Shown in pieces: positions 1,263-17,035 of a stretch of DNA of 20,000 nt (within the stretch, counting starts at the first letter, position 1; each line of letters opens with the position of its first letter). The translations under genes were made by a program, and so were the position numbers. The notes under the pieces were generated by a model that saw nothing but the letters and a program-made list of their open reading frames with translations, was not told the origin of the DNA and did no database searches. The stretch is from an uncultured virus (IMG/VR IMGVR_UViG_3300003690_002253). Its lineage: Duplodnaviria; Heunggongvirae; Uroviricota; Caudoviricetes. Location of the stretch: the IMG/VR virus record IMGVR_UViG_3300003690_002253; one strand, given 5' to 3'.

Positions 1263-1841
1263 CTACCCTTCAGTCATATAGCTATCACGGGCATATCCAA
1301 ATGTTTCAAAATCCTCACGATAGATGTCCCATATCCTATCCGCCACGCTCTGGTCAGCGTAATACTCTTTGGGAGACAAGTGATAAGAACTTTGAAAAGT
1401 ATTTTCTCGAAACTTGAAATCCTTCGGAAAAGAAGGGATCTTTTTCAAATCCTTTTCCAAACATTCTAAATGAATAAAGTAGTCCACGTCTTCAATCCGT
1501 GGACCCAGCACAAAAGTGACCGGGAAAATGTGTCCCGGAACACCGTCTTTTCTGGTCACCGGAAACGGATGATGCACAAAATCCGGAAACGAATCAGGAT
1601 GATAAGCAGACTCGCTAATCAAGTTCATCCACTTCCACACCGACAACGCACGAAGATAAGGATTTCTAACAGAGCATACCACCTCATACTCGGCATACTT
1701 GGGATCACAGCCAATATCATGTGTCATGCGAAAATCAAACGAGTACGCCTGCTTCAAACACTCAAACACGTACCTAGAGCCGGTCCTCGGTAAACCCCAG
1801 TAGACAAGTTTTTCGCTGTGGATGTAATTCACATTCGCCAC
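1263..1841 (-). CDS. Sulfotransferase family 2 (Sulfotransfer_2-like) protein
   Basis: 5'-PSB-like PRTGS, 3'-PB-like SVRNPYLRALSVW and C-terminal IYREDFETFGY. GTG start. Confidence 0.85.
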   Translation of the reverse strand: MANVNYIHSEKLVYWGLPRTGSRYVFECLKQAYSFDFRMTHDIGCDPKYAEYEVVCSVRNPYLRALSVWKWMNLISESAYHPDSFPDFVHHPFPVTRKDGVPGHIFPVTFVLGPRIEDVDYFIHLECLEKDLKKIPSFPKDFKFRENTFQSSYHLSPKEYYADQSVADRIWDIYREDFETFGYARDSYMTEG

Positions 1842-1843
1842 CT

Positions 1844-1878
1844 AAAAGGGGCCGAGAACATTGTCCCCGGCCCCTTTT
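1844..1878 (-). terminator. Intrinsic terminator-like hairpin, possibly bidirectional
   Basis: AAAAGGGGCCG (1844-1854) and CGGCCCCTTTT (1868-1878) form a perfect inverted repeat. On the minus strand the stem extends by G-U pairs (GGGAC/GUUCU) and is followed by UUUU. Confidence 0.75.
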
Positions 1879-2006
1879 GTTGCACGCGTGCAATTAACTC
1901 TGAACTTATTTAGTAAGCCCCCAGAGAGTGTTTGGGGCTCTATTAGAAACAGCTTAATGCTGTGTTACTACAATCTAACAGATGCGAATACATAAACCAA
2001 TATTTA

Positions 2007-2606
2007 TTAGTAACGCAACAACCCCCACACTTGACTGTCGACATAGTGACTACCAGAGGCCGGAGTACGGTTGTTTTTGTCGTACTCTTTCCTGACATAC
2101 ACAGCCTCTCGCTTGAGTCCTTCCATAATGAAACCCGCAGCCGAAGCACACTTCTGAGACGCGATGTTTGACACCAGTATCTCCGCCGTTAATCTTCGTA
2201 GGTTGAGAAAATTGAAGGAAAAGGACGCACCACCTTTAACAATAATCTTCCCTATCCCCATGCCCCTGTAATCCGGCATGAGGTCCCACCCTGCATCAGC
2301 ACAACGATTGATGTAGTCAATGTTAGCAAGCTTGAAAAATCCTACGACGTCCTTTTCTTTGCCCTCTCGCTGCACCAGCGTAAGAAACAGCTTGTCGGGC
2401 TGGTTAACATCTGTTTGCATGCTGTCAAACCAGCGCTCTTGATCCTCTTCGTTAACAATGGTGCCGGTGTGCGTGTTCCCCCACGTTTCCGCTTTCAGCT
2501 CTGACAACAGCCGTAGGTCTCCTCTCGCTAGCTTGCGGAAACCAAAGTTCTCGTCACACACATAAAGGGTTGGTATGTTCATCGAGCCTCCACCAATCAA
2601 AGTCAT
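2007..2606 (-). CDS. GNAT N-acetyltransferase, RimJ/RimL family (PseH-like)
   Basis: Acetyl-CoA motif A (PDYRGMGIGK), NLRRLTAEILVSNIASQK..AAGFIMEGLKRE and IDYINRCADAGW. The start is either 2606 (ATGA overlap with the upstream stop) or 2582 (GGTGGAGG upstream). Confidence 0.9.
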   Translation of the reverse strand: MTLIGGGSMNIPTLYVCDENFGFRKLARGDLRLLSELKAETWGNTHTGTIVNEEDQERWFDSMQTDVNQPDKLFLTLVQREGKEKDVVGFFKLANIDYINRCADAGWDLMPDYRGMGIGKIIVKGGASFSFNFLNLRRLTAEILVSNIASQKCASAAGFIMEGLKREAVYVRKEYDKNNRTPASGSHYVDSQVWGLLRY

Positions 2607-3406
2607 TCAACATTTCTGATAGCTCCCTCATAGGAGATGGGACGCAATAAGGTCTCACCCTCCGTAGTGAAGGAGACCGCGTCTGATACGTGACGCCCCG
2701 GAAAAGGACCTCCATAGGGAATGTCCTTCTTCGTAGCCATACAGAAAAACGGAAAAACATAGTCTACGGACATGTCGATTATCTTGAATCCCTGATCTGT
2801 AAATTTGCGTAAAAACAAACGTTGGCAGGCATCCCCGTGCTTGTAAATGTGCCAACGACTATCAATTCCCGGCAGTGAAAACGTGTTACGTGTCCTGAAT
2901 GCCGCCAAGTTAATAATACCATTGGAATTAGATGACAAGTTGTATTTCCAACAACAGGAACAATAAACAACCCGGTCTCGATTCTCCTTGTCCGTAAAGT
3001 ATCTCATTACCATCTCGGTGTCAAAACCCACCTTACACGGTATGTAGTCATCTTCTATCAGGAAGGAGAAATCCAAGCCATCCGCATGATTGATCAATGC
3101 GTGTTCCCATGCCCCATATGAGAAGGCGTAATTCGGTCGTGAACAAATAACCCACTCACGATCATCTTCAGAGTTCTTAGCTTCAATGATGGAAACAGCT
3201 TCCTTGTAAACTTCATCATCAGAGCCATCTTCACGCAGGTTACAGACGAAAATCACACGCTCTATGTGTGTGGCACACTCCGTAAGAACCTTCACGTGCT
3301 CACGAAGACAATAAAGAGGGTCAACATCTCCCCAGTGTTCTGTCCACGAACGACGAGGGCCGAAGTATACCGCACAAACGTATCCCGTTCTCATGGTCTC
3401 AGGCAT
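2603..3406 (-). CDS. Putative GT-A-fold glycosyltransferase-like protein (paralog 2)
   Basis: DFSFLIEDDY (DxD-like motif after a beta-strand) and RPNYAFSYGAW. It lies between sugar-pathway genes and overlaps both neighbours. Confidence 0.6.
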   Translation of the reverse strand: MPETMRTGYVCAVYFGPRRSWTEHWGDVDPLYCLREHVKVLTECATHIERVIFVCNLREDGSDDEVYKEAVSIIEAKNSEDDREWVICSRPNYAFSYGAWEHALINHADGLDFSFLIEDDYIPCKVGFDTEMVMRYFTDKENRDRVVYCSCCWKYNLSSNSNGIINLAAFRTRNTFSLPGIDSRWHIYKHGDACQRLFLRKFTDQGFKIIDMSVDYVFPFFCMATKKDIPYGGPFPGRHVSDAVSFTTEGETLLRPISYEGAIRNVE

Positions 3407-4262
3407 CTACAGTAGCTCCTCCCGACAACACAGAGAAACCCGCCATGTCTTCCACATGCAAATCTTCTGGAAAGATATGAACCTTCCGTTGCTGCGATTC
3501 AACAGAAGACATCCCGTGCTTATGAGCATCTTTTACCACCAGCTGGATGGGAACAAAGACAACAGAGCCGTTACAGTTACCGAAATAAGACATTTTACGT
3601 GCGCGGTAATGCATGAAAGGCATGTAGTACTCCGCCGCCATATTTCGAATGCTTAATCCCTTGTCCTCGAATGTTGTCAAAAACTGTGCTTGAGCATGAG
3701 GCCCATTACTCTTACCAACATCATCCAAGTAGAACGTATTTCCATTGTCACGAAACACTTTAACGTTGATGAGCCCGTTAGAGATGGCAGCATGCCCCGG
3801 ATCGTGTTTACCTGCGGAGACAAACCACGAAGCACAGAAAAGAACGTTCTCCCTGTCCTCTTCCGTAGAGTAGTACCGAGAGAGTATCTCCGCATCAAAC
3901 CCGTGTTTACAAACCACGTAGTCGTCTTCTACCAAGAAAGCAAAGTCAATGTCGTCACAGTTCCCTTGAAGCGAGGCGTTCCATGCGCCATAAGAAAAAT
4001 GCTTATTGGGACGACGAAAAAGAGTAATAGGGATGTCAGTCGTCTTCTGATACTCAGCTACCTTCTTTTCCATCTCCTCAAAGTGTGCAAGATGATGATC
4101 GTCCGCATTGCAGGGAATTATTATGCTGTCAATACACGTAGCATTTTTGAAAAGCCACGGGAGATAGTCGTCCACATAGAAGTTGAGAGTGCCCCTCTTC
4201 TGGCCGCACCTCGGTCCGAGAAAAGTAGCGCTGATGTAAGCTATTTTATGTCCATTCCACAT
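3399..4262 (-). CDS. Putative GT-A-fold glycosyltransferase-like protein (paralog 1)
   Basis: DFAFLVEDDY and RPNKHFSYGAW. Colinear similarity to 2603-3406. Starts 1 nt after the aminotransferase stop. Confidence 0.6.
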   Translation of the reverse strand: MWNGHKIAYISATFLGPRCGQKRGTLNFYVDDYLPWLFKNATCIDSIIIPCNADDHHLAHFEEMEKKVAEYQKTTDIPITLFRRPNKHFSYGAWNASLQGNCDDIDFAFLVEDDYVVCKHGFDAEILSRYYSTEEDRENVLFCASWFVSAGKHDPGHAAISNGLINVKVFRDNGNTFYLDDVGKSNGPHAQAQFLTTFEDKGLSIRNMAAEYYMPFMHYRARKMSYFGNCNGSVVFVPIQLVVKDAHKHGMSSVESQQRKVHIFPEDLHVEDMAGFSVLSGGATVDA

Positions 4263-4263
4263 A

Positions 4264-5385
4264 CTACCACCCAGACCTGATCACACTCACAATGTGGTCT
4301 ATATCTTTAGCCTCGACCCACCAACCACACGGAATACAAATCATGTCTGAGCACACCTCGTCTGTGCCGGGGAGGGGAACTCGGTACTTGGCAAGACAGG
4401 TATGCTTGTCGTTACGGTCATGTACTCGACTACACGCAATCCCTTCCCCCTGCAACTTCTTCACAAAGTCATCTCTTCGCTCTACTCGCAATGTGTAAAT
4501 CCAGTACGAGGAACGACATCTCTCAGGCATGTGATCCAGCAATGTAATGCCATCTACGTCACCCAAGGCAGCATCATAAAGCATCCCGTTGGTTCTATGA
4601 GCATGGACGATTTCTTTGATTGATGCGAAGTTCTGGATGCCGATGACGGCATTAATGTCATTCATGTGGAACTTGTATCCCCATTCTGACACGTTCTGCT
4701 CGCACCGCATGTCAGGACTCTTCTCCCGATCCAATCCAAACCACCTGAGCAGCTTGGCCCTTCGATGCGACTCGTAATCAGGAGAGATGAGCACACCACC
4801 GTCACCTGTTGTAAGGTGTTTGATGGCCTGAAAGCTGTGTGCCACGAAATTACCGTGGTTCCCAAGCACCTTTCCGTCCCATTCTGCCCCGAAAGCATGG
4901 GCAGCATCCTCGATAATGGGCGGTCTGTAGCCATAAAGGTGCTCAGATTCGTCCTGAACGGCCCTCAGAGCGTCCAGATCGCACGGAGTGCCTCCCCAGT
5001 GGACAACCATGATCCCAGCGACGTCTGGCCCCAGCTTACGCCGTAGATCCTGCATATCTACATTGCAGGTGGCCGGGTCGGTATCTACCCAGCGAATGTC
5101 GTATCCATTCGCCAGTATGGGGAAGTTGGTAGCTGTGCAGGTGAGAGGGATCGTGAGTATCGTGTTACGATCGCCTGCATGCTTTCGAATAAGGTGCAAT
5201 GCCAGATGAAGAGCAGACGTACCAGCATTCACAGCAGCACACAAAGAAGTACTCGTGTACTCCTTCAGTAGCTCCTCGAACTCGTCAACCTTCGGACCTT
5301 GTGCAATGTATCCGGATTGAAGAACGTCACTGAGAGGGGATGTCACGCCCTCGGCGACAAAGACTTTGAACAACGGGATGTTCAC
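4264..5385 (-). CDS. DegT/DnrJ/EryC1/StrS-family PLP-dependent sugar aminotransferase
   Basis: QGPKVDEFE, VNAGTSALHLAL, IIEDAAHAFG, PLP-lysine motif SFQAIKHLTTGDGG and GYKFHMNDINA. GTG start with AAGGAG SD at 5392-5397. Confidence 0.95.
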   Translation of the reverse strand: MNIPLFKVFVAEGVTSPLSDVLQSGYIAQGPKVDEFEELLKEYTSTSLCAAVNAGTSALHLALHLIRKHAGDRNTILTIPLTCTATNFPILANGYDIRWVDTDPATCNVDMQDLRRKLGPDVAGIMVVHWGGTPCDLDALRAVQDESEHLYGYRPPIIEDAAHAFGAEWDGKVLGNHGNFVAHSFQAIKHLTTGDGGVLISPDYESHRRAKLLRWFGLDREKSPDMRCEQNVSEWGYKFHMNDINAVIGIQNFASIKEIVHAHRTNGMLYDAALGDVDGITLLDHMPERCRSSYWIYTLRVERRDDFVKKLQGEGIACSRVHDRNDKHTCLAKYRVPLPGTDEVCSDMICIPCGWWVEAKDIDHIVSVIRSGW

Positions 5386-5388
5386 TTG

Positions 5389-5754
5389 TTACTCCTTGGA
5401 TTTAAATGGAATCGCCTCCCCGTTTCTTCGTAGTATATCAAAACATTCGGTACAACCCATGTGTGTCCCCTCATGTGATGAAATATAATGATAGGCTCTA
5501 ACCTGCATGTTTGAAGTGAGCCTCCATCGAGAAGCCATCCCAGTCAGCAGTTGATACGTGGACTTGACGTCCTCTCGTGCCTCTGCCTCTCGCAACTTTG
5601 CCGCCTCTTCAGAATCCTCTATCTGCTGCCGCAACTCAGATATTCGCGTTTCAAGAGCACCAACATGCTGAAGCGAAACCATGCTGAATACTACCGAGGA
5701 TGTTAGAAGAAGACAAAACAACAAGTTAAGTCCGATTTCACGTCGCATAACCAT
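5389..5754 (-). CDS. Membrane-anchored coiled-coil protein with a C-terminal His/Cys motif
   Basis: N-terminal hydrophobic helix, coiled coil (LETRISELRQQIEDSEE) and HY...H...H.GC.EC. GGAGG SD upstream. Confidence 0.7.
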   Translation of the reverse strand: MVMRREIGLNLLFCLLLTSSVVFSMVSLQHVGALETRISELRQQIEDSEEAAKLREAEAREDVKSTYQLLTGMASRWRLTSNMQVRAYHYISSHEGTHMGCTECFDILRRNGEAIPFKSKE

Positions 5755-6073
5755 TTCCTCCTAGGGTTATCTTCCCTTCTGTACTTCGTGGCGGTGCTTG
5801 GGGTCTCGCCGGAACCGGGAATGGAATAGGGATGACTGGCTGTATCTGAATGAATATTGGTTTACTCATCATCTCCAGCTGCCCCTTTTCCAGCGCCTCA
5901 AGCCGCTGGTTAACACTCTGACCATCTCCATGGTCAACTTCGTACCTACGAACTTCTCTTCCTGTTAAGCCTCCCAAAAGAAGCAGAGATATAACAGATA
6001 AAAAAGAAGCAATCCTACTCTTTCGCCGAACTTTGACTTTTGATCCAACAAGATCAACAGATTGATGAGACAT
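5738..6073 (-). CDS. Hypothetical single-TM protein with a Pro-rich tail
   Basis: Basic stretch, then TM (IASFLSVISLLLLGGL), short coiled coil and PVIPIPFPVP. GGAGG SD upstream. Confidence 0.7.
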   Translation of the reverse strand: MSHQSVDLVGSKVKVRRKSRIASFLSVISLLLLGGLTGREVRRYEVDHGDGQSVNQRLEALEKGQLEMMSKPIFIQIQPVIPIPFPVPARPQAPPRSTEGKITLGGNGYAT

Positions 6074-6103
6074 TTTCGCCCTCCTTGGCTTAAATCTCGA
6101 AAT

Positions 6104-6331
6104 TTACAGGTTCCTCGCATACACTTGCCAAAACACATGGCCACACAAAAAGCCTGCCATAAAAGATATGACAGGCCACTGTCTTGCCGACTCGTATAAC
6201 ACAACACTAACCGTAGCATCTTCGTTCCCGGTGCAAAGAAGATAGGCGTCCCAACTTCCCATCGCGAGAACAATAAATACGATTAACATCCGTGTTATAA
6301 CTACATGATCCATCTGAGCCTCCTTGCTCAT
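6104..6331 (-). CDS. Small two-TM membrane protein
   Basis: 75 aa with two hydrophobic helices. The internal ATG at 6313 (MDHVV) follows AAGGAGG and may be the real start. Confidence 0.7.
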   Translation of the reverse strand: MSKEAQMDHVVITRMLIVFIVLAMGSWDAYLLCTGNEDATVSVVLYESARQWPVISFMAGFLCGHVFWQVYARNL

Positions 6332-6404
6332 CAGAGTCGCTACATATATTTTCCTTTTTTAGACTGCCTGAGTCTAGGTCATCCCTGTTAATTAACGCTG
6401 GTAA

Positions 6405-7463
6405 TTACAGCAACGCAGCTAGACGTCCGAGTTGTGCTGTCTTACCAAACTGATTAGGACTACCTGTGCGTACCAGCCCGGGCATCTTCTCCGCCCGGTG
6501 CTTAAACCAGTTTTCCCTCGCTGCCCTTGCTTCAGGTGACATATACTCCTCCATCCATTCCTCACCCTCTCGAAGATCTCCGGGCACCCGCTCCTGCTTA
6601 TCGTTCCACTTAAGAGCCTCTTGCGCCTCTTGTGCATTAGTAACGTGCTTCCCCGTAGCTTCGTAATAATTACGCTTAATCGTGGCTAGGAACGCTTCTG
6701 ACTCACGACGGCTTGAGAAATAGTTGGCATAAGACTCTGGATTCTGGCGGTAATAGTCTTGAGACGACTCTCCAAGGTATGTTTTAATATCGTCGTAGTA
6801 GCTCGGGCGATAGTATCGATCCAACTCGGTCCCCGTGGTCGTCGCGCTCGGTGATTGCGATGCATGCGTTAATTCATGTCCGAGCACCTCTGCGCCTTTA
6901 TCCTTGGTGACCAGTCCTCCATACGGATTTGTTGATGGCATGGTAATCCGCCCAGTAATGGGGGAGTAAAACCCGCCGAGACCGATAGCATCCCCTTCAC
7001 CGCCCAGATTTTGATATTCTCGCGCAAAGCCTTCACGTGTTAGCGTGGTAGCAGGAATTTTACGATCAATCGATTTATCAGAAATATCCTGCGTATACGG
7101 TTGCTCAACTCGCGGGTTAGATGCCCGCCACGCTTTGGCGTGTTGTTGCGCTCCCGCTCTATAACCTTTCGGCAATACATCTGCTAACGATACTGACTTA
7201 CGGTCTACAACGGCACGCAAAGATGACCCGGGATAATCTGGCGGCAGTCTCGTGGTATCTACGCCAGCTAAATGCTCCGGGTTTTGGTGTTTAGGGGGAA
7301 GAATTGCAGGTGGAGCTACTGGCTTGATGGTCGTGAACGGGTCCATCGAACCGCCCACCGAATAGGGGTCATCCTCATAGACCCCAAGCGGGCTGTCGCC
7401 CGGCCATGCCTTCTTCTCCATGGCAGCTAGACGTCCGAGTTGTGCTATTTTTTGTAAGTGCAT
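6405..7463 (-). CDS. Leader-bearing protein with a zincin-like HExxH metallopeptidase motif
   Basis: Start reassigned from 7505 to 7463 (MHLQKIAQLGRLAAMEKKA), which matches the sibling leaders and removes the overlap. GGFYSP..GRITM, LGHELTHASQ (HELTH at 6864-6878) and a downstream RESEAF. Confidence 0.75.
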   Translation of the reverse strand: MHLQKIAQLGRLAAMEKKAWPGDSPLGVYEDDPYSVGGSMDPFTTIKPVAPPAILPPKHQNPEHLAGVDTTRLPPDYPGSSLRAVVDRKSVSLADVLPKGYRAGAQQHAKAWRASNPRVEQPYTQDISDKSIDRKIPATTLTREGFAREYQNLGGEGDAIGLGGFYSPITGRITMPSTNPYGGLVTKDKGAEVLGHELTHASQSPSATTTGTELDRYYRPSYYDDIKTYLGESSQDYYRQNPESYANYFSSRRESEAFLATIKRNYYEATGKHVTNAQEAQEALKWNDKQERVPGDLREGEEWMEEYMSPEARAARENWFKHRAEKMPGLVRTGSPNQFGKTAQLGRLAALL

Positions 7464-7477
7464 AGTGAGTAGGCCGT

Positions 7478-7975
7478 TTACCGCTGGTAATTCCGGTAGT
7501 TCCATAGCTTGGGGTAATTAGTCTGCCGGAGTCGCTGCATCGACCGCTTGTTTTTCTGGTACTGAGGGTTAAGTACCGTGCCGTACCCAGAAGGTGCTGG
7601 TACTCTCTGCCTCATGTAATTGAGTCGTCCTTGTACTTCCTCGGGAGTAGCATCAGCCCATGGGTTATTCTGTACTACTCCGTGGGGATCAGTAAGCTCA
7701 CGATAATTATGCATCTCTGCCATCCACTTCTGGTATGCCTCATTGGTCCTCACCGTCGGAACGCCCGGATGCTTCCAGCCCTTAGGTTTATTAGGTATTC
7801 CCGCACTAAAAGGAGCTAGTCCAGAGCCCTTCGGCCCATATAGCGGTTTATTCAATTCCGCAGGAGGCGGCACGCCAGCAAGATTTGGAATCCCTCCACC
7901 TTGTGGAGCCGCGTCCTGAGCCATCTTCCCCATGGCGGATAAACGTCCGAGTTGTGCTATTTTTTTAAGATTCAT
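7478..7975 (-). CDS. Leader-bearing hypothetical Pro-rich protein
   Basis: 165 aa, begins MNLKKIAQLGRLSAMGKMA. Confidence 0.8.
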   Translation of the reverse strand: MNLKKIAQLGRLSAMGKMAQDAAPQGGGIPNLAGVPPPAELNKPLYGPKGSGLAPFSAGIPNKPKGWKHPGVPTVRTNEAYQKWMAEMHNYRELTDPHGVVQNNPWADATPEEVQGRLNYMRQRVPAPSGYGTVLNPQYQKNKRSMQRLRQTNYPKLWNYRNYQR

Positions 7976-8059
7976 TATGTGGTGCCTTTATTCTCGCAGA
8001 CCCAGCCAGATCTGGCGGGTGGATCGGGGCGACTGACTGGCTGGAAAACTCTCTTCTTC

Positions 8060-10246
8060 TCAATCACGCGCTCTATTATCCTCCACGCGCCATTCCATGT
8101 ATTTAGGCAGCTGATTCAAAATTAGGCGCTTCGCCTGCTCCGTAGTAATACTCGGATCTTCCTCAATTTGGTTCTTTATGGCCTTTATCCAAGTCACTAT
8201 TCTCATCGCTTGAAGGCGTTTTTTATCCGCGAGTTCTGCGTATGCACGAATACTATTTAGAGGGTACCCCGGCTCATATAGCAGCGGCGAGCCGGTCATG
8301 ATCGGCGGGAGACTGTACTTGTCTCTCCGGTTGCGATAATAGCTCGGATCTGTGGCCCAGTCCGGCATCTCTGCGAACTCTTTAACTTCATTGAGAACTC
8401 TCTTAAGAGGGTTGGCCCGGCTATTAGCATGTATGTGTGGGTCGTTGTAGTAGGCAGGGCGGTTAGGGCCGTGCGGCAGATTGCTACGTAAGACCTGTCG
8501 TCCCAATGGATCATAAAGCCGCCGACTACGTTCATCTGCATACCCCTCTCCCCTCCGCAGGTGGGCATGCTGCGGGTCGCGCGGGTAGTCGTACTCTCCT
8601 CTTTTACGACTTATATATCCGAGTAATGAATTATCCTCCCTGTAGGACTTCCAAAACTCGTCCGCAAAAGGCCGCTGTCCCGGAGCCATTGTTGTCGTAT
8701 GAGGTGTATGAGAAGGATGAAGCTTAGACAATTGATGAAGCAGATTGAAGTAATTCTGTTGTGCCTTCGTGGCGCGGTCGCGGGGTGCACGATACTCTTT
8801 ATCCACCAGCCGTCCATACTGATGGCCGGTGAGGTTGTAAAAATCGTTTGTGTCGTGAATGTAGTCGCCGAATACCGTCCCGCGCTGCAATCTGCCTCCG
8901 GGACCATACAACTTCTTCATAAGCTCTATCTCACGCTTAGGATCTTTTGAAGGTCCTCCATATGCTGCATTCACCAAAGCCTTCGCCGCAGCGGGATACG
9001 ACTTTTCCTCTATACCGGCTTGACCCATATTTTGACGTGCCGTATCTAATCCCTGCCGAGCTGCCTCGCCAAAACTGAATGGCGACGGTTCGGGGCGGTC
9101 TCGGAAACCCCGTGTTTGCCGTTGACGATTCGCGCTCTCCGTGAGTCCTCTTATTATCTTAGTTCTGAGGTCTGGGCTGACTTGCCTCGTCAACTGAGCT
9201 AAGAGAGGAGAGTTCTCTACACCCTCCGGATCACTTATGGCGGATTGAGCGAGATCCCCGTGAAATTTCCTCTGCTCTTCTCTATATATCGTCGGCATAT
9301 CGTCCGCGATAGATCGCTGAACACCTGTTATCGCTAGTCCGAACGGCGAGAGACTTCTGACGATATCAATAACAGCTGAGCGAGTGGGATGCTCTTGAAG
9401 GCGATGAGCCGCACTTCGCTGCATGCTGGGATATACCTCTCTTCCTGTTTCACGCCACAAGGCCCGAGCAACAGGATCATTCCTACTAAAACTATGAGGC
9501 AACAAACGTAACGCATCACTCCCTTGTATACTTTTTGTAAGTTCTTCTGCCTCATCAGAAGTTAAGTTAGCCAGCTGACCAATTTGTCGAGCATAACTCG
9601 CAGGCTGCTGATACATAACTTGATTAGTTGATTCAAAAGCTGCTGCCGTGGCAGCTCCAATAGGTACAGCCTTATTTATTAATCGCAAAGCATTAGCCGT
9701 GCTCTGACGTGTACGGTCAAGAACGCGCGGAGTCTCTGATTTAGGTTTGGGAGGATTCCAGCCCTTGGGGACGAGAGACAGGGGGCCCTTCGGCTTCAGT
9801 GGTTTGAGAAATCCCTCTGCACTCAAGCCCGGTGGCCTGTCCAGCCCGGGATAACGTGGGTTAATAATAGCACGACCTAGATCAAGCGCTTTTATAGGCT
9901 GCCCCACGGGAACACCAGTGATACCACGAGTAACCTTACCCCCGGCACCCTGAATCGCTTTTAAAACCGCCCGGGAGAAGGCAGCCTTCTCCATGGCTGC
10001 TTGACGTGCATCTTGATAATCCAAGATATTTTGTGAGGACAAACCACCCGGCACTAAACCCTGCGTCCCCATCATTTTCCTCACCCTCGGAGCCACGAAC
10101 TGGTCCATGATGAGACCCATGATGTCGGTTCTCCTCTGCGGGGGCGCAGTCACCACGGGAGCAAATCCCTGACCCAACTGATTCAACAGCATCAAGTCCG
10201 TCTGCCCAACCTGACGTCCGAGTTGTGCTATTTTGTGAAAACGCAT
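8060..10246 (-). CDS. Large leader-bearing hypothetical protein with a split leader
   Basis: 728-aa ORF. Begins MRFHKIAQLGRQ, with RQAAMEKAA at residues 81-89. Confidence 0.85.
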   Translation of the reverse strand: MRFHKIAQLGRQVGQTDLMLLNQLGQGFAPVVTAPPQRRTDIMGLIMDQFVAPRVRKMMGTQGLVPGGLSSQNILDYQDARQAAMEKAAFSRAVLKAIQGAGGKVTRGITGVPVGQPIKALDLGRAIINPRYPGLDRPPGLSAEGFLKPLKPKGPLSLVPKGWNPPKPKSETPRVLDRTRQSTANALRLINKAVPIGAATAAAFESTNQVMYQQPASYARQIGQLANLTSDEAEELTKSIQGSDALRLLPHSFSRNDPVARALWRETGREVYPSMQRSAAHRLQEHPTRSAVIDIVRSLSPFGLAITGVQRSIADDMPTIYREEQRKFHGDLAQSAISDPEGVENSPLLAQLTRQVSPDLRTKIIRGLTESANRQRQTRGFRDRPEPSPFSFGEAARQGLDTARQNMGQAGIEEKSYPAAAKALVNAAYGGPSKDPKREIELMKKLYGPGGRLQRGTVFGDYIHDTNDFYNLTGHQYGRLVDKEYRAPRDRATKAQQNYFNLLHQLSKLHPSHTPHTTTMAPGQRPFADEFWKSYREDNSLLGYISRKRGEYDYPRDPQHAHLRRGEGYADERSRRLYDPLGRQVLRSNLPHGPNRPAYYNDPHIHANSRANPLKRVLNEVKEFAEMPDWATDPSYYRNRRDKYSLPPIMTGSPLLYEPGYPLNSIRAYAELADKKRLQAMRIVTWIKAIKNQIEEDPSITTEQAKRLILNQLPKYMEWRVEDNRARD

Positions 10247-10260
10247 GACATTATTCTTGA

Positions 10261-10594
10261 TAAAAGTGGTGAGCTGGGCAATAGCACCGAGGTTGATGAG
10301 TCACTGGTAGGCATAACCTAGACATCTCCAATAAACTCACCGCCTTTAAGTCTCTTGCCACTACCCGGCAGAAGAGACCGGTTTTGCGTGCAGAGATAAA
10401 GAGCGAAGGGGGTCTGAGGTACCCGAAACTCCTGCTCTGCCGCTCCTACTGCCCGGAGTTCCGTCGACGAGGTTTTTTCCCCAGCAGAACCCAAGGGAAG
10501 ATCCCCGAAAAGCCTCCCCTAATAGCTACTCGTGTGGTCAGGTTCCCGAAAACCCACCTCGCCCAAGCAGCCTGCGTACTCACCCGGTAGTCGC
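10261..10594 (-). ncRNA. Candidate structured RNA of unknown family
   Basis: A ~400-bp gap without a convincing ORF. It contains several nested helices whose G-U pairs work only on the minus strand, plus a UUCG-capped hairpin (see findings). Folded by eye only. Confidence 0.5.
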
Positions 10595-10617
10595 ACTAGC
10601 GCCTCCAAATCCATTTA

Positions 10618-10673
10618 ATCCGGTATTCCTCCATGAATAGTCAGTCCGTAGGTTACGGCACGGGGTAATCTTG
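10618..10673. repeat. 56-bp direct repeat, copy A
   Basis: 54/56 identical to 11164-11219. Covers QDYPVP-stop plus the downstream non-coding DNA. Confidence 0.95.
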
Positions 10674-11153
10674 CAAACGATTGATACTAAATTGACCTTC
10701 CGCAAGATCTTCAAGATACGGCTGATTTAACTTAGCAGCTTGTCCGGGAGCACGCTTACCCGGCGAAGATGGAATAGTATAACGTGATGGAGCGCCTAGC
10801 CCAGAAGCACTTAGATCGGGATATTTGAATGCTGGATGACCCGGCATCACCAGAGGACCAGTAAAGCCGGGATTTTTCTTACGTGCTGCCTGCATCAACT
10901 GGGCATACTGTCTCTGCTGATGAAATTTAGCCATAGGGCTCAAAGATTCCAAATCTCCAGTCCCATGAATTAACTGACGAATACCTTCTGGTGATTGCAG
11001 CTGCTGTTTAAACGACTTGACAAGCTCGGCATCCTTTGGCACCTTTGGTAGCTTTGGCGGCTTAACACCAGAAAGAGCTTTACTAACTGCCCGTTGGCCC
11101 ATCTTTTCCATGGCAGCTAGACGTCCAAGCTGTGCTATGTGTGGGTAGTTCAT
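10653..11153 (-). CDS. Leader-bearing hypothetical Lys/Pro-rich protein
   Basis: Start reassigned from 11180 to 11153 (MNYPHIAQLGRLAAMEKMG). Ends QDYPVP. Confidence 0.8.
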   Translation of the reverse strand: MNYPHIAQLGRLAAMEKMGQRAVSKALSGVKPPKLPKVPKDAELVKSFKQQLQSPEGIRQLIHGTGDLESLSPMAKFHQQRQYAQLMQAARKKNPGFTGPLVMPGHPAFKYPDLSASGLGAPSRYTIPSSPGKRAPGQAAKLNQPYLEDLAEGQFSINRLQDYPVP

Positions 11154-11163
11154 TTTCACTTTT

Positions 11164-11219
11164 ATCCGGTATTCCTCCATGAATAGTCAGTCCGTAGGTT
11201 ACGGTACAGGGTAATCTTG
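11164..11219. repeat. 56-bp direct repeat, copy B
   Basis: 54/56 identical to 10618-10673. Both mismatches are at third codon positions of PVP. Confidence 0.95.
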
Positions 11220-11684
11220 ATGGGGAAGAGCCTTGGATGGCTTTCGCGGACCACGAAGCAAACGGTTAAGCGGCTCTGCTAACCCTCTCACTTTATCGAT
11301 TATCTCGTTCGACTTCTCTCCACCGGGACCATACCCACTAGAAAGAGCAGCCCCACCACCAACTGCACCCACCGTGGCACCAGCACCCAGTATAGCTGAT
11401 CGAATTTTCTTGGGATCATACTGACCACGTTGAGTTAAAGGACGAGTTCCAAGCGGCTTATCCCCTTTCAGTATATTTAGGTATTGGTCATGCGGTATCC
11501 CATACCGCTTCGCAAGGCGTTCCAAGTCGGGGCGGAGTCTACCCCCTACGGACGAGGGTGCGAATGGACTAAAACCGCGAGCGACAGCGGAAGTTGGTGG
11601 CTTAGGTTTAAAAAAGGCTCGCTGAGCTGCCTTCTCCATGGCAGCTAGACGTCCAAGTTGTGCTATTTTGTGGTAATTGTTCAT
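11199..11684 (-). CDS. Leader-bearing hypothetical protein with a Gly/Ala-rich hydrophobic helix
   Basis: Begins MNNYHKIAQLGRLAAMEKAA. Contains AILGAGATVGAVGGGAAL and ends QDYPVP. GGAAGG upstream. Confidence 0.85.
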   Translation of the reverse strand: MNNYHKIAQLGRLAAMEKAAQRAFFKPKPPTSAVARGFSPFAPSSVGGRLRPDLERLAKRYGIPHDQYLNILKGDKPLGTRPLTQRGQYDPKKIRSAILGAGATVGAVGGGAALSSGYGPGGEKSNEIIDKVRGLAEPLNRLLRGPRKPSKALPHQDYPVP

Positions 11685-11722
11685 GGTATTACCTTCCAGC
11701 CTACAGGCTGCAATTTACTTCT

Positions 11723-12382
11723 CTACTTTACACCCCGTGGTTTTCCGACCCACACCAACTTAGCTTGAACTGTACCAGACTGAGGATTCACCTTGAAGGG
11801 ACCCATCTTATAACCACTCTCCTGAGCCAATATCCGATACGCAGACAGCCTAGGTTGACCCTGTTTGTCAATGCTGAGGGAGAGCACTCCCTTAGATCTT
11901 GACCCATCAATTATTTTCAGCATTGAAGCTTTCATATCCTTCGGCTGGTTGACCCAAAACTTGTCTGCGAATTTTTGGTCTCTGATTCTCAGCTGTTTAA
12001 TCCGTTCTGGTGTGAGCTTGGTAGCAGTGGTTGGTTTAGCTGCCGGAGTAGTTGCTACTGGTTTAGTCGGAGGTACAGCTGCTGGCTGCGCCGGTTTAAC
12101 TGGCATAGCTGCTGGTTGCGACAACGGGGCATCTCTGTACCCCTTCACCCCCTTACCATAAAGAGGATGGGTCGAATCAATCAGGTGGGGAATCTCAGGT
12201 GTCTCATTCAGTCGTCGGGGAAGATATGCCTCCCTCCCCGGCATCTCAGGTGCGGTAGGAACCTTCGGCGGCTTTGGTACCGCCGTTGGTATCTTTGGCG
12301 TTTTTTTGAACAGTGACTTCGGAACAGCCATCTTTTCCATGGCAGCCAAGCGACCCAGATTAGCCATATGGTCAAAATTCAT
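11723..12382 (-). CDS. Leader-bearing hypothetical basic Pro/Ala/Thr-rich protein
   Basis: Begins MNFDHMANLGRLAAMEKMA. QPAA/KP low-complexity linker and a probably globular basic C-terminus. Confidence 0.85.
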   Translation of the reverse strand: MNFDHMANLGRLAAMEKMAVPKSLFKKTPKIPTAVPKPPKVPTAPEMPGREAYLPRRLNETPEIPHLIDSTHPLYGKGVKGYRDAPLSQPAAMPVKPAQPAAVPPTKPVATTPAAKPTTATKLTPERIKQLRIRDQKFADKFWVNQPKDMKASMLKIIDGSRSKGVLSLSIDKQGQPRLSAYRILAQESGYKMGPFKVNPQSGTVQAKLVWVGKPRGVK

Positions 12383-12396
12383 TACTTGCTCATAAG

Positions 12397-15300
12397 TTAA
12401 GGTACTGGAATTGGTATACCTGTATCTGTTGTTGGCTTAGGAACAGCTGTATCTTCCTCTTCAGGTGGTGCGGTAGGTACTGCACCGGGCTCTTCGGCAG
12501 TTCCGCCGGGGACTTCTTCAGATGGTATGGTAGATGCCCCTATCTCAGGCTCTGCGGCAGTGGCAGCAGCCTCGTTACGCTGCTTGAAATACGCATCAAC
12601 TTGTGCTTTTGAAAACCCGGCGTGTCGGCCCATTTCATAATAAGTTATATTATATTCTGAGTTCGTATCGCTTCCACTTCTTGCGTCGGGGAGGACATAT
12701 TGGTCGAGCTGTGCCATAAGGGATGCGTTAGCTCCGGCATCAGCATCGGCATCAGCTCCGGCACCAGCTCCGGCACCAGCTCCGGGAGCATTCGCGTTAG
12801 CCTTCTCTGCACCGCCGAACAGACTACCGAACACCATCGGAAGGATAAACATAGCAAGTCCGGCCATTCCTGCCGTGGTGTTGCCACTTATTAATCCTCC
12901 AACACCTAAAGCTCCTCCAGCAATCATAAGTAATTTCAGAATAGGACTCATGTTCGCTACAGCCTCTGGTCCCATGACCATGCCCAGCAACGAGTCCATA
13001 CCAATCGACTTAGTGAACTTGTTAATATTTTCACCCATGCCGCCCAACAGATTGAAGCCGCCTGCTCCCATCTTGTCCAGAAGCATGGCTTTAACCTTGT
13101 CATGGCCTTCAGTCTCAATTATATGTTCAATAATCTTTCCTTCTTTCGCGGCAATGAACAACTTACCTAGCTTCGTCTCAGGATCTCCCAGCTCCGCGAC
13201 CATTTCGAGGTCAATACCCAGCTTTTCCGCAATGGCTTCGATGGCTCCGGGACTGTTCGTTAGCTTGTCGTATGCCTCTTGCCCAGCGAGGAGTGTGACG
13301 CCTCCTCCTACCGTTCCCCCTATCACCTTCCGAGTTAGGCTACCCGGTCTGGGCTCCGGGACAGCCGGTGTGACGGGAGAAGTGCCCAATGCTTGCAGAG
13401 CTGCGGTGTTCCTCGCCGCCCGACTGTCTGCCTCTTCAGCGTCTAAGCGAAGCGTCTCAGCTCTCTGTAGCCGAATCAACTCTGCCGCGTCAGCGTCTTC
13501 GCCGAAATCTAGCTTAAGTTGTCTCTCTGGTGTTGGCTTACCAGTGACTTCGTCGATGGCCTGCTGTGACGCCGGATTCGGCTGACGAGGACCATGCGTT
13601 TGCTCCAGCGGTTTCCGGCGGCCAATATTGGGAAATAGCTCAAGTTGCTCAGGTTGACCAGTCAAAACAGAGCCAGCGCCTAGATCAATCTCTTGATACC
13701 CCGCCTCAACCCTTCTTCTATTGTAAGCAGCCGGACTCTCCCCCCGACGCTGGTTTATCACTTGTCGTTGTGTGCTGGGTATAGGTGGTCCTTCTGGCGT
13801 CGTTGGTGTTACTTTTGGTTTTACTTTTTCTGGTGATGATAGTGATGCTGGCCCTTCAGGCACGTCTAGTTTCTTTGGTGGTGTGAACAGTCCAGTTGCG
13901 AGTGTTTTTGTAACCTCCGGGTCTGGTCTGACGGGGATGTTAATTACGTTGGACCCGCGCGATCCCAGCCCTCCCTTTATCGGCTTCTTGGGTGTGACCA
14001 CTGACTTCGGAACAGCCACCTTTTCCAGTAGCTGGGGGATATTTACCGCTCGCAGCTCTGTAATAAACTCATTTCCTACCAATCCCGCAGCCTTTTCCAG
14101 TGCGTTAGGTAGCAATTCAACAGCGAGACCACTGTTAATCAGACCGCCAAAAAAGGCACACGGGAAAGGAGCATAGCCCGCTTCCTTGAGCATCTTAATT
14201 GCATCTTGCGGAATATGTACGCTTGCAAAATCAGCAGCGCGAGCCCACCAACCGTCTGAACCACCGGGCTTACCTGTCACAAATGGACGCCGAGGCTGAT
14301 GTGCTGACAGGCCAGCTGACACTCTATCTGACGGACTCGGAACTGCGTAAGTACTTGCTTTTCCAGTCGATACCTTCTTCGGTACGGGCATGGGAGGACC
14401 AAGCTCCTTCGGCGCTGTCCCTTCATAGAGCTTTAGTCCGGGCCTGTTGTAACTCCAACGTCGATCCTTGGATAAGGGATATTGCTTGTTTTTACCAAGA
14501 AGATAGTCTTTAACAGCCGCATCCGTACGTCTCTCTTTCTCTCGCTCCCAGTCACGTGTGGGAGGATTATTAAACTCCTCGCGTACCCATTCCTCATGCT
14601 TCATGTCAGGATGCACAGCGTTACAGTCATGACGTGGTCGCTGATCCGCTGGCTGCATGGCGTATTTCGAAAGAGCAGCCTTCTCCAAGGAAGCCTTCCA
14701 CTCTTCATGAGTCTGATTGGGATGTACTCCATGGCAATCATGTCGCGGAGTCTGATCAGCAGGCTGTTCGGACTTACCGTACTTGTCCATTACTGAACTA
14801 GCTATCTGTGTCCCAACACCAAACGGCTCTGCCTTATTTCCATCTTCGTCTACAAAGTCAGCATGCTCCCGTTCGGTACCATGCTCATCAATGTACTCCC
14901 ACCGCCAGTTTTGACGATAAATTTTCTTACCGTCAGGTGTAGTAGCGAATAGTTCCCTGTCCTTTGGGTGCTCTTTCTTCTTCTCTTTCTTCGCGTATTT
15001 ACTCATCGCCTCTTTTGCATCGTCTACGTAGCTGTCCTCGTCTTCCTCCTCTTCTGCATGCTCGTCATCTTTGTCCCTGTTGAGATATTTGTATAACCCA
15101 TAACCACCTAATCCCAGCGCACCCGCGCCAACAGCCAGCTGGGGCCAGTGGTCCCCTAACCAGTCACCCTTATCATCCTTAGCTGTAAGACCTGTCGCTT
15201 CGGCGTCCTGTTTCAGGGTTTCCTGCCTCGCTTGATCCGTGTGAAGTGGTGTCGCCGGTACACCATCCGACTTCGGGTCTTGTTCCTCACGCCACTTAGT

Positions 15301-16992
15301 GTCCGCTGCCCGCCTCTTCCCAGCCGGGGACTTCGGGTCCAACGAGTCAACCGCATAGCCCTTGTCGGCGCGGCGCTGGTCGTCCTCGGAATCCCGTCGA
15401 TGTCCGGTCCGTTCGAAGAATTCTTCGTCCGTGGCGTGGTCGCCAGTGATATCGGTGTCATCCCAGCTCAGCAGATTACGACCCCGGCCCGGGTTCCCGA
15501 AGGTATTGACTACTGGTGGGGTGGTATTGACTACTAGTGGGGTACCTCCCGGACCCCGCAACATGTAGGCCCCGCCACCGAGTACACCAAGCCCACCGGC
15601 AACAGCAGCAGTAGGTTTGAGGTATTTCGTTAAAGCCCTCTGCGCTACCTTCTCATATCCCTGCTTCTCCGCTCCTGTCTTCACATACTTATCAATGCTG
15701 CCCTTCTCAGTAGTATCCGGCAAAAAGCTGCCAGCACCGGGAGCAGTTACAGAACCACCCTGAATAGAACCGCCCGTACCAGACTCCGGCAAAAAGCTAC
15801 CCGCATTAGGAGCAGTTACAGAGCCACCCTGAATATCTTTCGAGTTTTGCGGTTCAGGTATCAGCCCACGCAATCCGAAGCGGCGTTCAGCTTGGTTGTA
15901 ACCCGGTCCAAAATTTCTTGGGTGCGGAGAGGGCTGTTGTCCCTGAAGCTGTCCTTGGATGAAAGTGCCTGTCTCATTACGAGGTTCACCGGGAATTCCC
16001 GGGGGCAACTGATCAGTTTTAAGCTTCAACTCGTAGCGTTGTCGCTGCAACTCCTCAGCTTTTGCGCGACCAAGGGAACTCCCATAACCAGCGGGATTAA
16101 ACATGGATGGATTCCACGGTTCCATCACCTGTCCACTGTCGGGTTCCTTCATGAGGGGCAGCTCCTGACCCGTCTTCACGTACTTATCAATGCCAGCCGT
16201 TTCCCATGTACCCGGAGCGGGGGGCTTTATCTCTGGTGGCACTGGCAGGCCACCTCGGAGCGATTTCAGGAAAGTTCGATCCACTTGTCGTTCACTTTGG
16301 GCTTTAGTTCGAGCCGCTTTTCGGTCGCCTCTAGCTAAAATTCGATCGACCCGACGATAAGTTCTCGGTGTAGCAGGCTTGTCACCACCACGAGGTTTTT
16401 GCTCACCTTGGGGTTTAATTCGGTCCACTTTTCGTTCGCCTTTAGCTACCATTCGGTCGGTCTGCCGCTGCTGCCGATCTCCTTGGCGTGTACTCTGACG
16501 GTAAGCTCTCTCGTCTGTCTTCGCATCTCCCGTCTTCATGAACTTGCTCAGACTCTCCCATGCAGCAGGACCAGTCGCGTGATCCTCGTCACGTGTGGTG
16601 AAGCTGACACCATTGTCCTCACCAGTAGAGGAACGCTGATCCTTGCTGTTGTCCTGAGCTGCATATTTATTAACGGCAGGAAATGCCATCTGGTTGCTCT
16701 GGTTTAGCTGATTAATGCTCGCCTGAACATCTTCAAGTCCTGCTCCACTGATATTGGCAGAGGACGCGTACGGATTCTGTGGGCCTTCGTTACCGGCACC
16801 AGCACCAAGTGAAGCGGCTCCTGCATATGGGAAGCTCTTACTCATGGGCCCTAAATGAGTAGGGGCATTCCCTACACCCGGCAATCCGGGGACGGGAGAC
16901 TGCTGGACAGCATTCTGGCCGCCAAGCATGCCCATGCCGTCGACATTTAAGCCTGCGTTGTCCTGAGCCGCTTTTGTGCGTTTTTTAGCCAT
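12397..16992 (-). CDS. Very large modular low-complexity protein, putative polyprotein or internal virion protein
   Basis: 1531-aa ORF with AGGA upstream. Many K-Y-[AVG], K-T-G and EK-x-[AG] sites, internal duplications and several Gly-zipper hydrophobic segments. Confidence 0.9.
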   Translation of the reverse strand: MAKKRTKAAQDNAGLNVDGMGMLGGQNAVQQSPVPGLPGVGNAPTHLGPMSKSFPYAGAASLGAGAGNEGPQNPYASSANISGAGLEDVQASINQLNQSNQMAFPAVNKYAAQDNSKDQRSSTGEDNGVSFTTRDEDHATGPAAWESLSKFMKTGDAKTDERAYRQSTRQGDRQQRQTDRMVAKGERKVDRIKPQGEQKPRGGDKPATPRTYRRVDRILARGDRKAARTKAQSERQVDRTFLKSLRGGLPVPPEIKPPAPGTWETAGIDKYVKTGQELPLMKEPDSGQVMEPWNPSMFNPAGYGSSLGRAKAEELQRQRYELKLKTDQLPPGIPGEPRNETGTFIQGQLQGQQPSPHPRNFGPGYNQAERRFGLRGLIPEPQNSKDIQGGSVTAPNAGSFLPESGTGGSIQGGSVTAPGAGSFLPDTTEKGSIDKYVKTGAEKQGYEKVAQRALTKYLKPTAAVAGGLGVLGGGAYMLRGPGGTPLVVNTTPPVVNTFGNPGRGRNLLSWDDTDITGDHATDEEFFERTGHRRDSEDDQRRADKGYAVDSLDPKSPAGKRRAADTKWREEQDPKSDGVPATPLHTDQARQETLKQDAEATGLTAKDDKGDWLGDHWPQLAVGAGALGLGGYGLYKYLNRDKDDEHAEEEEDEDSYVDDAKEAMSKYAKKEKKKEHPKDRELFATTPDGKKIYRQNWRWEYIDEHGTEREHADFVDEDGNKAEPFGVGTQIASSVMDKYGKSEQPADQTPRHDCHGVHPNQTHEEWKASLEKAALSKYAMQPADQRPRHDCNAVHPDMKHEEWVREEFNNPPTRDWEREKERRTDAAVKDYLLGKNKQYPLSKDRRWSYNRPGLKLYEGTAPKELGPPMPVPKKVSTGKASTYAVPSPSDRVSAGLSAHQPRRPFVTGKPGGSDGWWARAADFASVHIPQDAIKMLKEAGYAPFPCAFFGGLINSGLAVELLPNALEKAAGLVGNEFITELRAVNIPQLLEKVAVPKSVVTPKKPIKGGLGSRGSNVINIPVRPDPEVTKTLATGLFTPPKKLDVPEGPASLSSPEKVKPKVTPTTPEGPPIPSTQRQVINQRRGESPAAYNRRRVEAGYQEIDLGAGSVLTGQPEQLELFPNIGRRKPLEQTHGPRQPNPASQQAIDEVTGKPTPERQLKLDFGEDADAAELIRLQRAETLRLDAEEADSRAARNTAALQALGTSPVTPAVPEPRPGSLTRKVIGGTVGGGVTLLAGQEAYDKLTNSPGAIEAIAEKLGIDLEMVAELGDPETKLGKLFIAAKEGKIIEHIIETEGHDKVKAMLLDKMGAGGFNLLGGMGENINKFTKSIGMDSLLGMVMGPEAVANMSPILKLLMIAGGALGVGGLISGNTTAGMAGLAMFILPMVFGSLFGGAEKANANAPGAGAGAGAGADADADAGANASLMAQLDQYVLPDARSGSDTNSEYNITYYEMGRHAGFSKAQVDAYFKQRNEAAATAAEPEIGASTIPSEEVPGGTAEEPGAVPTAPPEEEDTAVPKPTTDTGIPIPVP
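12730..12785. repeat. 12-bp tandem repeat, coding (GAGAGAGADADADAGA)
   Basis: Units agctccggcatc / agcatcggcatc / agctccggcacc / agctccggcacc / agctccgg. Confidence 0.85.
14587..14766 (-). repeat. Duplicated 23-aa His/Cys module (period 111 bp)
   Basis: QPADQTPRHDCHGVHPNQTHEEW (14698-14766) and QPADQRPRHDCNAVHPDMKHEEW (14587-14655). Confidence 0.9.
15716..15835 (-). repeat. Coding tandem duplication (period 69 bp)
   Basis: IQGGSVTAPNAGSFLPE and IQGGSVTAPGAGSFLPD at 15785-15835 and 15716-15766. Confidence 0.9.
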
Positions 16993-17035
16993 GTGTCAGT
17001 GTTCCTGTCTTCATGTACTGGTCAATGCAGCTATG

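Follow-up and report, generated by a model that had tools for sequence, protein, structure and literature searches.

The stretch of DNA analyzed here, called the window below, covers 20,000 nucleotides (nt) of a 77-kb contig assigned to an uncultured virus (IMG/VR IMGVR_UViG_3300003690_002253). Every substantial open reading frame (ORF) of the window lies on the minus strand, and six ORFs in a row (11723-12382, 11199-11684, 10653-11153, 8060-10246, 7478-7975, and 6405-7463) begin with the same short peptide, which is called the leader where it stands at an N-terminus and the tag wherever it stands. A stretch of about 400 nt containing no ORFs (10247-10652) separates two of these six genes. The six peptides reported in the first-pass annotation, which was made from the letters alone, were all found at their minus-strand coordinates, the copy running from 10246 downwards being the split one. 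The copies and their looser relatives are as follows:

12326-12382, minus strand: leader of the 219-amino acid (aa) gene (11723-12382), with most synonymous positions different
11625-11684, minus strand: leader of the 161-aa gene (11199-11684), with a glycine-zipper helix in its body and HQDYPVP as a C-terminal motif
11097-11153, minus strand: leader of the 166/175-aa gene (10653-11153, or to 11180 from an upstream ATG), the protein ending in QDYPVP
10211-10246, minus strand: split leader of the 728-aa gene (8060-10246), first half, repeat family D3
9981-10000, minus strand: second half of the split leader (..AAMEKAA), repeat family D4
7919-7975, minus strand: leader of the 165-aa gene (7478-7975), where the residue ahead of the invariant Lys is Gly instead of Glu
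7407-7463, minus strand: leader of the 352-aa HExxH gene (6405-7463)
6408-6449, minus strand: seventh copy, at the C-terminus of the HExxH protein (FGKTAQLGRLAALL-stop)
18963-19370, minus strand: 135-aa glycine-zipper protein with a diverged leader-like N-terminus (..LIAYIARAAARG..), looser pattern
18261-18920, minus strand: 219-aa protein with a diverged leader-like N-terminus (..LIANIARSSAADAMYKQA..), looser pattern

The tag family and its position in proteins

The tag extends over 17 residues and can be written [FLY]-x-[KHQ]-I-A-Q-L-G-R-[LQ]-A-A-M-E-K-x-[AG]. Its core gave seven matches in a six-frame search of the window, all in the coding frames of the leader ORFs, six of them N-terminal and one C-terminal, and the looser pattern added two diverged N-terminal copies upstream, where again only coding frames matched. 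Back-translated A-Q-L-G-R was found six times in the window versus 0.05 expected, a count reached in none of 200 shuffles, and all these DNA matches are in frame with minus-strand ORFs. The near-identical DNA core described in the first-pass annotation for three copies is visible in the alignment and in repeat families D1-D4, with weaker copies elsewhere. The bodies were likewise found to be unrelated: once the first 22 residues are removed, none of the six proteins pairs with another at a BLASTP E-value (E) <1e-4 in an all-against-all comparison of 33 proteins. The array shows unrelated proteins, encoded in a cluster, that share a single short conserved peptide at a terminus, which is the arrangement known from T4.

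The tag family is rare. A profile of nine leaders was run against 5.8 billion proteins at E<=10, with 7,999 candidates scored, and it retrieved 23 proteins, five of which are the window's own; the others come from environmental assemblies, none of them is named, and none carries a Pfam domain or has a significant match in Pfam or PHROGs. The leader block itself has no match in Pfam, PHROGs, or NCBIfam. A search of species genomes with the leader pattern and with the 1531-aa protein encoded beside the array gave 0 matches, and a text search of the literature for three leader strings returned no paper. An exhaustive search with a broader, mixed leader profile yielded eight matches at E<=0.001 and one new member: P0006, P0010, P0030, and P0031 were its own queries, P0007, P0009, and P0033 are relatives, and P0032 is a low-complexity false positive. 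This mixed profile is too weak for a census of the diverged leaders of the contig L002, which are described below.

The enrichment at N-termini to be expected of a leader was indeed observed, since the motif starts at residue 5-7 in 18 of the 26 proteins inspected. It starts at residue 10, 15, 20, or 46 in four others, three of which have an in-frame Met five residues ahead of the motif, so that the called start is probably too far upstream. A regular expression detected two internal or C-terminal copies among the 26 proteins and missed three of them (the split gene, a gene called from within the leader, and P0015), P0015 having a further internal copy seen by eye. The peptide had been described as an N-terminal leader, and it is mostly that, but it also occurs at one C-terminus (6408-6449) and at internal sites (L002:6898-8862, P0015, L002:5009, L002:8867, and L002:10570). 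With about even confidence, we favor the reading that this peptide is a position-independent docking tag carried by virion cargo.

Selection on the peptide and proposed exchange of gene ends

In the 22 leaders compared, the core positions A2, L4, G5, R6, and A9 are invariant (22/22); Lys12 is present in 21/22, Ala or Gly at position 14 in 21/22, and Glu11 in 16/22, the others having T, G, or K at this site. In seven pairs of orthologues the 14-residue core is 71-100% identical versus 36-53% for the bodies (best BLASTP segment), as in the pairs showing 13/14 vs. 43%, 12/14 vs. 37%, and 14/14 vs. 48%. Identity was higher in the leader than in the body in 10 of 11 orthologue pairs, the exception being w7975/P0007 (93% vs. 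96%). In the copy at 12326-12382, the codons have changed (GCA>GCT, CTC>CTG, GGA>GGT, CGT>CGC, and CTA>TTG) while the residues have not. The part of the earlier proposal of an address tag which holds is therefore that of a real module under protein-level selection on unrelated bodies, but cutting at K-x-[AG] is unsupported and the place of the tag is not strictly N-terminal.

The contig L002, of which 18.5 kb of 64.6 kb were analyzed, carries six genes in a row with a diverged tag, M-x-x-IQQLAK-x-AA or MTLIQQLGRMAAR (IQQLAK.AA / IQQLGRMAA), together with internal and near-C-terminal copies of it and one internal copy of the window type. The body of L002:12643 is 38% identical to that of P0025 (E 7e-31) and that of L002:5009 matches P0021 (E 2e-7), P0025 and P0021 both carrying the window-type tag. 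Since these L002 bodies are homologous to proteins with the window-type tag, the two types can be regarded as interchangeable, element-specific versions of a single module. Element-specific tag types on orthologous bodies would be the behavior expected of an address tag co-evolving with its receptor. Repeated D-G-D-G-D-G-K-V-x-D-G-T motifs were also observed near the tag copies of L002.

The DNA of the gene ends is conserved as well, and the shared ends might be mainly recombination linkers, the peptide having little function of its own. The features concerned are the following:

10614-10673, minus strand: 3' cassette-boundary repeat, copy 1 (QDYPVP codons, stop, and a spacer of ~35 nt), family D6
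11160-11219, minus strand: 3' cassette-boundary repeat, copy 2, family D6
10001-10210, minus strand: insertion of 210 nt (70 aa) inside a leader

The leader is written largely in codons that are minor in the window (ATA 0.28, GCA 0.23, CAA 0.37, GGA 0.24, CTA 0.10, and GCC 0.17 of their families), and these are near-identical in 9 of 10 leader copies, those of the contigs L001 and L002 included. Because non-preferred codons are kept across copies and contigs, part of the conservation is due to recent exchange or to a constraint at the nucleotide level rather than to protein function. The 60-nt 3' repeat shows 95% identity between its two copies, non-coding bases included. Logan contigs of four coded runs (X1-X4), which were compared with the window at 6000-13000, break at leader copies, and one X4 contig joins 10675 to 11667 with no letters between (shorter side 138 nt); that strain lacks the 175-aa gene and almost the whole of the 161-aa gene. 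Further joints, from leader to leader or from the non-coding element to the start of another gene, have sides of 33-36 nt and are hints only. The loss of two cassettes in this single X4 contig, these weaker joints, the near-identical codons, the 3' repeat, and the insertion into a leader all speak for linkers. However, the copy at 12326-12382 and the L002 variants keep the peptide pattern in other DNA, five residues are invariant in 22/22 leaders, the tag is kept on orthologues whose bodies have diverged down to 36-48% identity, and the C-terminal and internal copies are in frame, whereas a linker alone needs no fixed frame or residues. That the ends are mainly linkers is, in our view, improbable. 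We infer that the gene ends have a further role as recombination boundaries for cassettes.

The insertion lies between ..L-G-R-Q and A-A-M-E-K.. and makes the 728-aa gene 70 residues longer at this point. Its 76%-identical homologue P0002 has an intact leader, and the split copy can thus be attributed to the 210-nt insertion at 10001-10210. The insert is 61% identical over 72 residues to part of an unrelated protein of 489 aa, P0005, namely its N-terminal region. One contig of run X1 matches ~10008-10207 alone, with unrelated sequence on both sides, which indicates that the donor gene exists in that community. The database gene call for the 728-aa gene (P0001) places the start downstream of the insert. 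At 10128-10143, inside the insertion, contigs of X1, X2, and X4 show a 14-nt skip relative to the window, which might be a variant or a frame difference.

The codons and stop of (H)QDYPVP at 10653-10673 and 11199-11219 end two tagged proteins, and the same ending is found, with different codons, in their homologues (P0016-P0018); the 1531-aa protein ends in ..IPIPVP (12397-12420). The C-terminal (H)QDYPVP may be a second terminal signal. Another repeat in the region is a 12-nt tandem repeat with four copies at 12730-12790, encoding a Gly/Ala/Asp run in the 1531-aa protein, at which one X1 contig shows a 151-nt skip (12600 to 12752).

The ORF-free stretch at 10247-10652 (minus strand) is ~87-90% identical to L001:318-700, where the neighbors differ, and the flanking proteins are far less conserved. 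The RNAalifold consensus of the two sequences has 122 pairs, of which none is broken, with 14 one-sided pair-preserving changes and 4 compensatory ones, versus 0-1 compensatory changes in slid controls; this consensus is based on two sequences only, with a weak shuffle control (27/500) and a z-score of about -1.6 for the minimum free energy of the single sequence. Rfam and tRNA scans of the window gave nothing, and 10247-10652 has no Rfam match. This stretch is a candidate structured RNA.

A role of the shared 5' sequence at the RNA level, in translation control or as a regulator site common to the six mRNAs, would account for the unusual conservation of synonymous positions. The C-terminal and internal in-frame copies do not fit such a role, however, and in the copy at 12326-12382 the protein sequence is preserved although that of the RNA is not. 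Nor does the leader show any special complementarity to the non-coding region, the duplex energy being -38.8 versus -37.5 +/- 3.7 in shuffles. This explanation is highly improbable.

Proposed cargo proteins, neighboring genes, and indirect viral affinity

The cargo with the clearest relatives is the one tagged at both ends. The features discussed in this section are:

6864-6878, minus strand: HELTH motif in the peptidase-like domain of ORF 6405-7463, H196, E197, and H200 being invariant in 5/5 homologues
12397-16992, minus strand: 1531-aa disordered glycine-zipper protein beside the array, with many [DE]-K-x-[AG] motifs and a homologue beside the L002 array

The body of ORF 6405 has four homologues, and H-E-x-x-H and a downstream Glu cluster (EEEA) are invariant in 5/5 sequences. 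A profile of this HExxH domain has relatives in three viral contigs. In a 141-kb viral contig (L078), a 1576-aa protein encoded at 7565-12295 brings together a 2H 'Swiss Army Knife' (2H-SAK) phosphoesterase domain (PF22547, E 1e-9), a part that aligns with residues 80-358 of the 728-aa protein from the window (BLASTP E 3e-10), the HExxH domain, and glycine zippers, and the next gene encodes a 1874-aa LigD_N/SNF2/intein protein. In the contig L080, the HExxH domain is part of a 937-aa protein lying among giant virion-type proteins. The L078 protein provides the recurrence inside multidomain proteins of phages or conjugative elements by which polyvalent modules are recognized, and at least two of the cargo domains are thus of the kind found in phage polyvalent proteins, that is, head-packaged effectors. 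The fold of the HExxH domain was modeled with a mean predicted local distance difference test (pLDDT) value of 50, and Foldseek gave no match at E<=0.001 (best E 0.29), several of the top non-significant rows being zinc peptidases. This HExxH peptidase-like cargo, with its two tags, is a candidate processing enzyme.

Two of the HExxH homologues (P0026 and P0027) and L002:8867-10525 start with another conserved N-terminus, of the type M-P-[FY]-K-S-x-x-Q-x-R, with a weak match to phrog_1375 (E 0.011-0.014); this might be a head module of an alternative kind. Within the 1531-aa protein, conservation is highest in residues 656-797 (~14560-15030), which are 62% identical to the L002 homologue and contain a twice-repeated Cys/His mini-domain (..PRHDC..VHP...HEEW) also present in the small protein L003:6189-6794. 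Downstream of the leader block are three small membrane proteins and a sugar-modification cluster with a DegT aminotransferase (E 2e-73), a GNAT protein, a sulfotransferase, and two paralogues. These paralogues (2603-3406 and 3399-4262, 267 and 287 aa), which have a stop/start overlap, lie between the DegT and GNAT genes and have no match in Pfam, PHROGs, or NCBIfam. The relatives of the DegT protein occur in many bacterial phyla at 40-55% identity and give no clue to the host.

Several observations connect the window with tailed phages. In a language-model comparison, the nearest Atlas clusters of the 187-aa protein (240-803) score 0.95, 0.93, and 0.93 and are 82-100% viral (Uroviricota), and those of ORF 6405 are viral with a score <0.9. 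A part of the 1531-aa protein 100 residues long, which includes the Cys/His mini-domain, has its match in a small protein encoded by a viral contig with T4-type sheath, tube, sheath-stabilizer, and late-sigma genes. Like the HExxH relatives above, these similarities link the tagged proteins to a virion or a tailed phage only indirectly.

Docking might also take place on something other than a capsid. The peptide would then be a hetero-oligomerization helix bundling ejection or membrane proteins, or a chaperone or export signal of a plasmid-like (conjugative polyvalent-protein) element. Glycine-zipper or transmembrane-like helices are indeed present in many tagged and neighboring proteins, about 40% of the polyvalent proteins are on conjugative elements in the collection of PMC5512222, as given in an excerpt of that paper, and the lineage is absent from the viral-contig collection. 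Beside the leader array, L002 has genes for a tubulin GTPase that resembles TubZ/RepX (PDB 4ei7, E 4e-13; Pfam Tubulin, E 2e-8) and would be a partition protein, and for a radical SAM/SPASM enzyme (1194-2624 and 13432-14343). On the other side, no type IV secretion, relaxase, or other export gene was found in the 38.5 kb examined, viral nearest neighbors were obtained for the 187-aa protein and for the body of ORF 6405, and the HExxH relatives are in viral contigs, beside giant virion-type proteins in the case of L080. The genes are, moreover, all on one strand with overlapping stops and starts. We consider docking outside a capsid rather unlikely.

A number of results weigh against a tag for virion cargo. 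No capsid, portal, terminase, scaffold, or prohead protease gene was detected in the 20-kb window with Pfam, PHROGs, and NCBIfam (22, 22, and 19 proteins, respectively), nor was any found among the 16 + 13 proteins of the 18.5 kb of L002. In the viral-contig collection, 0 relatives were found with the leader pattern, the leader profile, the 728-aa protein, or P0005; in GenBank phages, the DNA search gave one chance-like match of 61 nt, and the 187-aa and 1531-aa proteins had no match. The tubulin of L002 fits a plasmid as well, and many of the cargo bodies are disordered or glycine-zipper proteins and not enzymes. To these must be added the kept minor codons described above and the two results on the leader itself which are given next, concerning its helical moment and the site of cutting.

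Possible processing, comparison with known systems, and meaning

The first-pass annotation called the leader amphipathic, but 79% of shuffles reach or exceed its Eisenberg helical moment of 0.16-0.28. The lack of a Sec/Tat hydrophobic core, on the contrary, can be seen directly in the sequence: charged residues recur every 3-6 positions, and there is no hydrophobic core of >=10 residues, no twin-arginine motif, and no lipobox. In the AlphaFold2 model of the 161-aa protein, residues 4-24 form one helix followed by a disordered linker, with a pLDDT of ~58-60, which is low confidence. No BMC domain was found in the window, which together with a helical moment not above that of shuffles sets the leader apart from the encapsulation peptides of microcompartments, and no HK97-fold encapsulin shell gene was matched beside the array by Pfam or NCBIfam in the window. 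A leader of ribosomally synthesized and post-translationally modified peptides was rejected because the bodies are of 140-700 aa, and a class III/pilin signal because no hydrophobic segment follows K-x-[AG].

Processing at Lys-x-Ala/Gly had also been proposed, and no sign of cutting after K-x-[AG] in particular was found. The leader might nevertheless be chiefly a removable propeptide for a maturation protease, without any targeting role. Its conservation stops sharply at K-x-[AG], and its end also reads A-M-E followed by Lys, A-M-E preceding Lys in 16/22 leaders, which fits the A-X-E rule given for the SPN3US gp245 prohead protease in an excerpt of PMC10052503; a peptidase-like gene lies within the array. 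[DE]-K-x-[AG] is in excess in the block 6405-19999, with 22 occurrences observed vs. 6.2 +/- 2.5 in shuffles (reached in 0/500) and 0 in 240-6331, but this pattern was picked with the data already in view, and the leaders themselves account for 5 of the 22 matches, so that this excess is a lead only. The points on the other side are that Glu is present in only 16/22 leaders, that the C-terminal copy at 6408-6449 stops before the K-x-[AG] part, and that neither the window nor the analyzed part of L002 shows a protease belonging to any known prohead family. The fold of the peptidase is unconfirmed (mean pLDDT 50, best Foldseek E 0.29), and a cleavage site alone needs no 12 conserved residues upstream. 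That the leader is chiefly a propeptide is quite unlikely; that the tag is removed at a later stage is possible, if somewhat doubtful.

Motifs of the type hydrophobic-x-K-x-[AG] were also noted in the disordered proteins at 12397-16992, 17036-18298, and 18261-18920, namely GGIDKYAK/R (twice), G(S)IDKYVKTG (twice), MSKYAK, MDKYGK, LSKYAM, LEKAA (twice), and MYKQAQQP.

On the docking-tag reading, the tag would direct varying proteins to a single shared receptor while an uncultured marine tailed phage is assembled. The receptor would most probably be on the inside of the prohead (scaffold, capsid, or portal), a capsid component being presumed, and the proteins bearing the tag would be packaged along with the DNA and delivered with it. 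If the tag is cut, this might occur after the Glu of A-x-E, ahead of Lys, or near K-x-[AG], and the enzyme might be the tagged HExxH peptidase or a prohead protease. The near-identical DNA at the 5' (leader) and 3' (QDYPVP and spacer) gene ends would allow cassettes to be exchanged by recombination. A bolder version, which is unlikely as a whole, is that of an undescribed marine phage lineage with an address system of its own, in which unbundled polyvalent modules are carried as cassettes with a 5' tag and, in some cases, a 3' boundary, recombination between strains allowing them to be swapped; the tag would stand at either end or between domains, the HExxH peptidase would trim the tag as well as the hydrophobic-[DE]-K-x-[AG] sites of the giant proteins, and the RNA-like element of 400 nt would belong to the same module.

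The closest known counterpart is the capsid-targeting sequence (CTS) of T4, by which the internal proteins IPI-III and Alt are loaded into the scaffolding core and which is removed afterwards, according to an excerpt of PMC3012670. As in the window, it is a short conserved N-terminal peptide on diverse, fast-changing, clustered proteins which are otherwise unrelated. The tag described here differs in being longer (~17 residues) and in occurring at a C-terminus and internally as well, and no gp21-type protease or capsid gene is present in the window or L002. Unlike those of T4, the cargos are often disordered or membrane-like and some resemble polyvalent-protein domains; no sequence relation is claimed. 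The HK97 protease reportedly has a C-terminal encapsidation signal (work said to be that of Duda et al. in 2013), this terminal peptide docking the protease inside the shell. Docking from either terminus, as with the HK97 signal and the cargo-loading peptides of encapsulins, matches the position independence observed here, but there is no sequence relation and, in the window, no shell gene beside the array. In encapsulins, a short terminal peptide docks the cargo inside an HK97-fold shell, as stated in excerpts of PMC8346489 and PMC11866011.

In P1, DarB's N-terminal 30 residues serve as a packaging signal (excerpt of PMC9024508). The likeness, as far as this excerpt goes, is that an N-terminal signal shorter than 30 residues sends a large anti-defense protein of the polyvalent type into the head and that several co-packaged proteins are encoded together; the signal is reported there on one protein, whereas a family-wide tag is present here, and the two have no sequence in common. 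Polyvalent proteins were predicted to be head-packaged effectors that are probably processed by zincin peptidases, with DdrB of P1 as a worked example (excerpt of PMC5512222). The HExxH domain and the N-terminal domain of the 728-aa protein, fused with 2H-SAK in L078, are separate genes here, each of them tagged, and this arrangement of unbundled modules plus a tag is not described in the excerpt of PMC5512222. The prohead protease of the giant phage SPN3US removes N-terminal propeptides of 20-24 residues from ejection and head proteins (excerpt of PMC10052503); these are not reported in that excerpt as one shared sequence, and here, unlike in the A-X-E rule, Glu is not invariant.

The principle, one terminal tag common to a cluster of diverse packaged proteins, has been known before from T4 and P1. 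What differs here is the tag family, its use at either terminus and internally, the paired 5'/3' cassette boundaries, and the link to unbundled polyvalent modules; the finding is of value for the distinct tag, its position independence, and the polyvalent link rather than for any new principle. How such arsenals turn over is suggested by the cassette boundaries and by the loss of cassettes at the strain level. If virions are loaded by means of the tag, it singles out the set of proteins injected by a phage lineage whose tagged proteins match no known family, and these dark-matter proteins, including a peptidase and polyvalent-type modules, would become interpretable. The tag would then also be short and portable, and could be tested for the loading of foreign proteins. 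It would, in addition, represent a second, independent way of organizing effectors, which in other phages are fused into giant polyvalent proteins.

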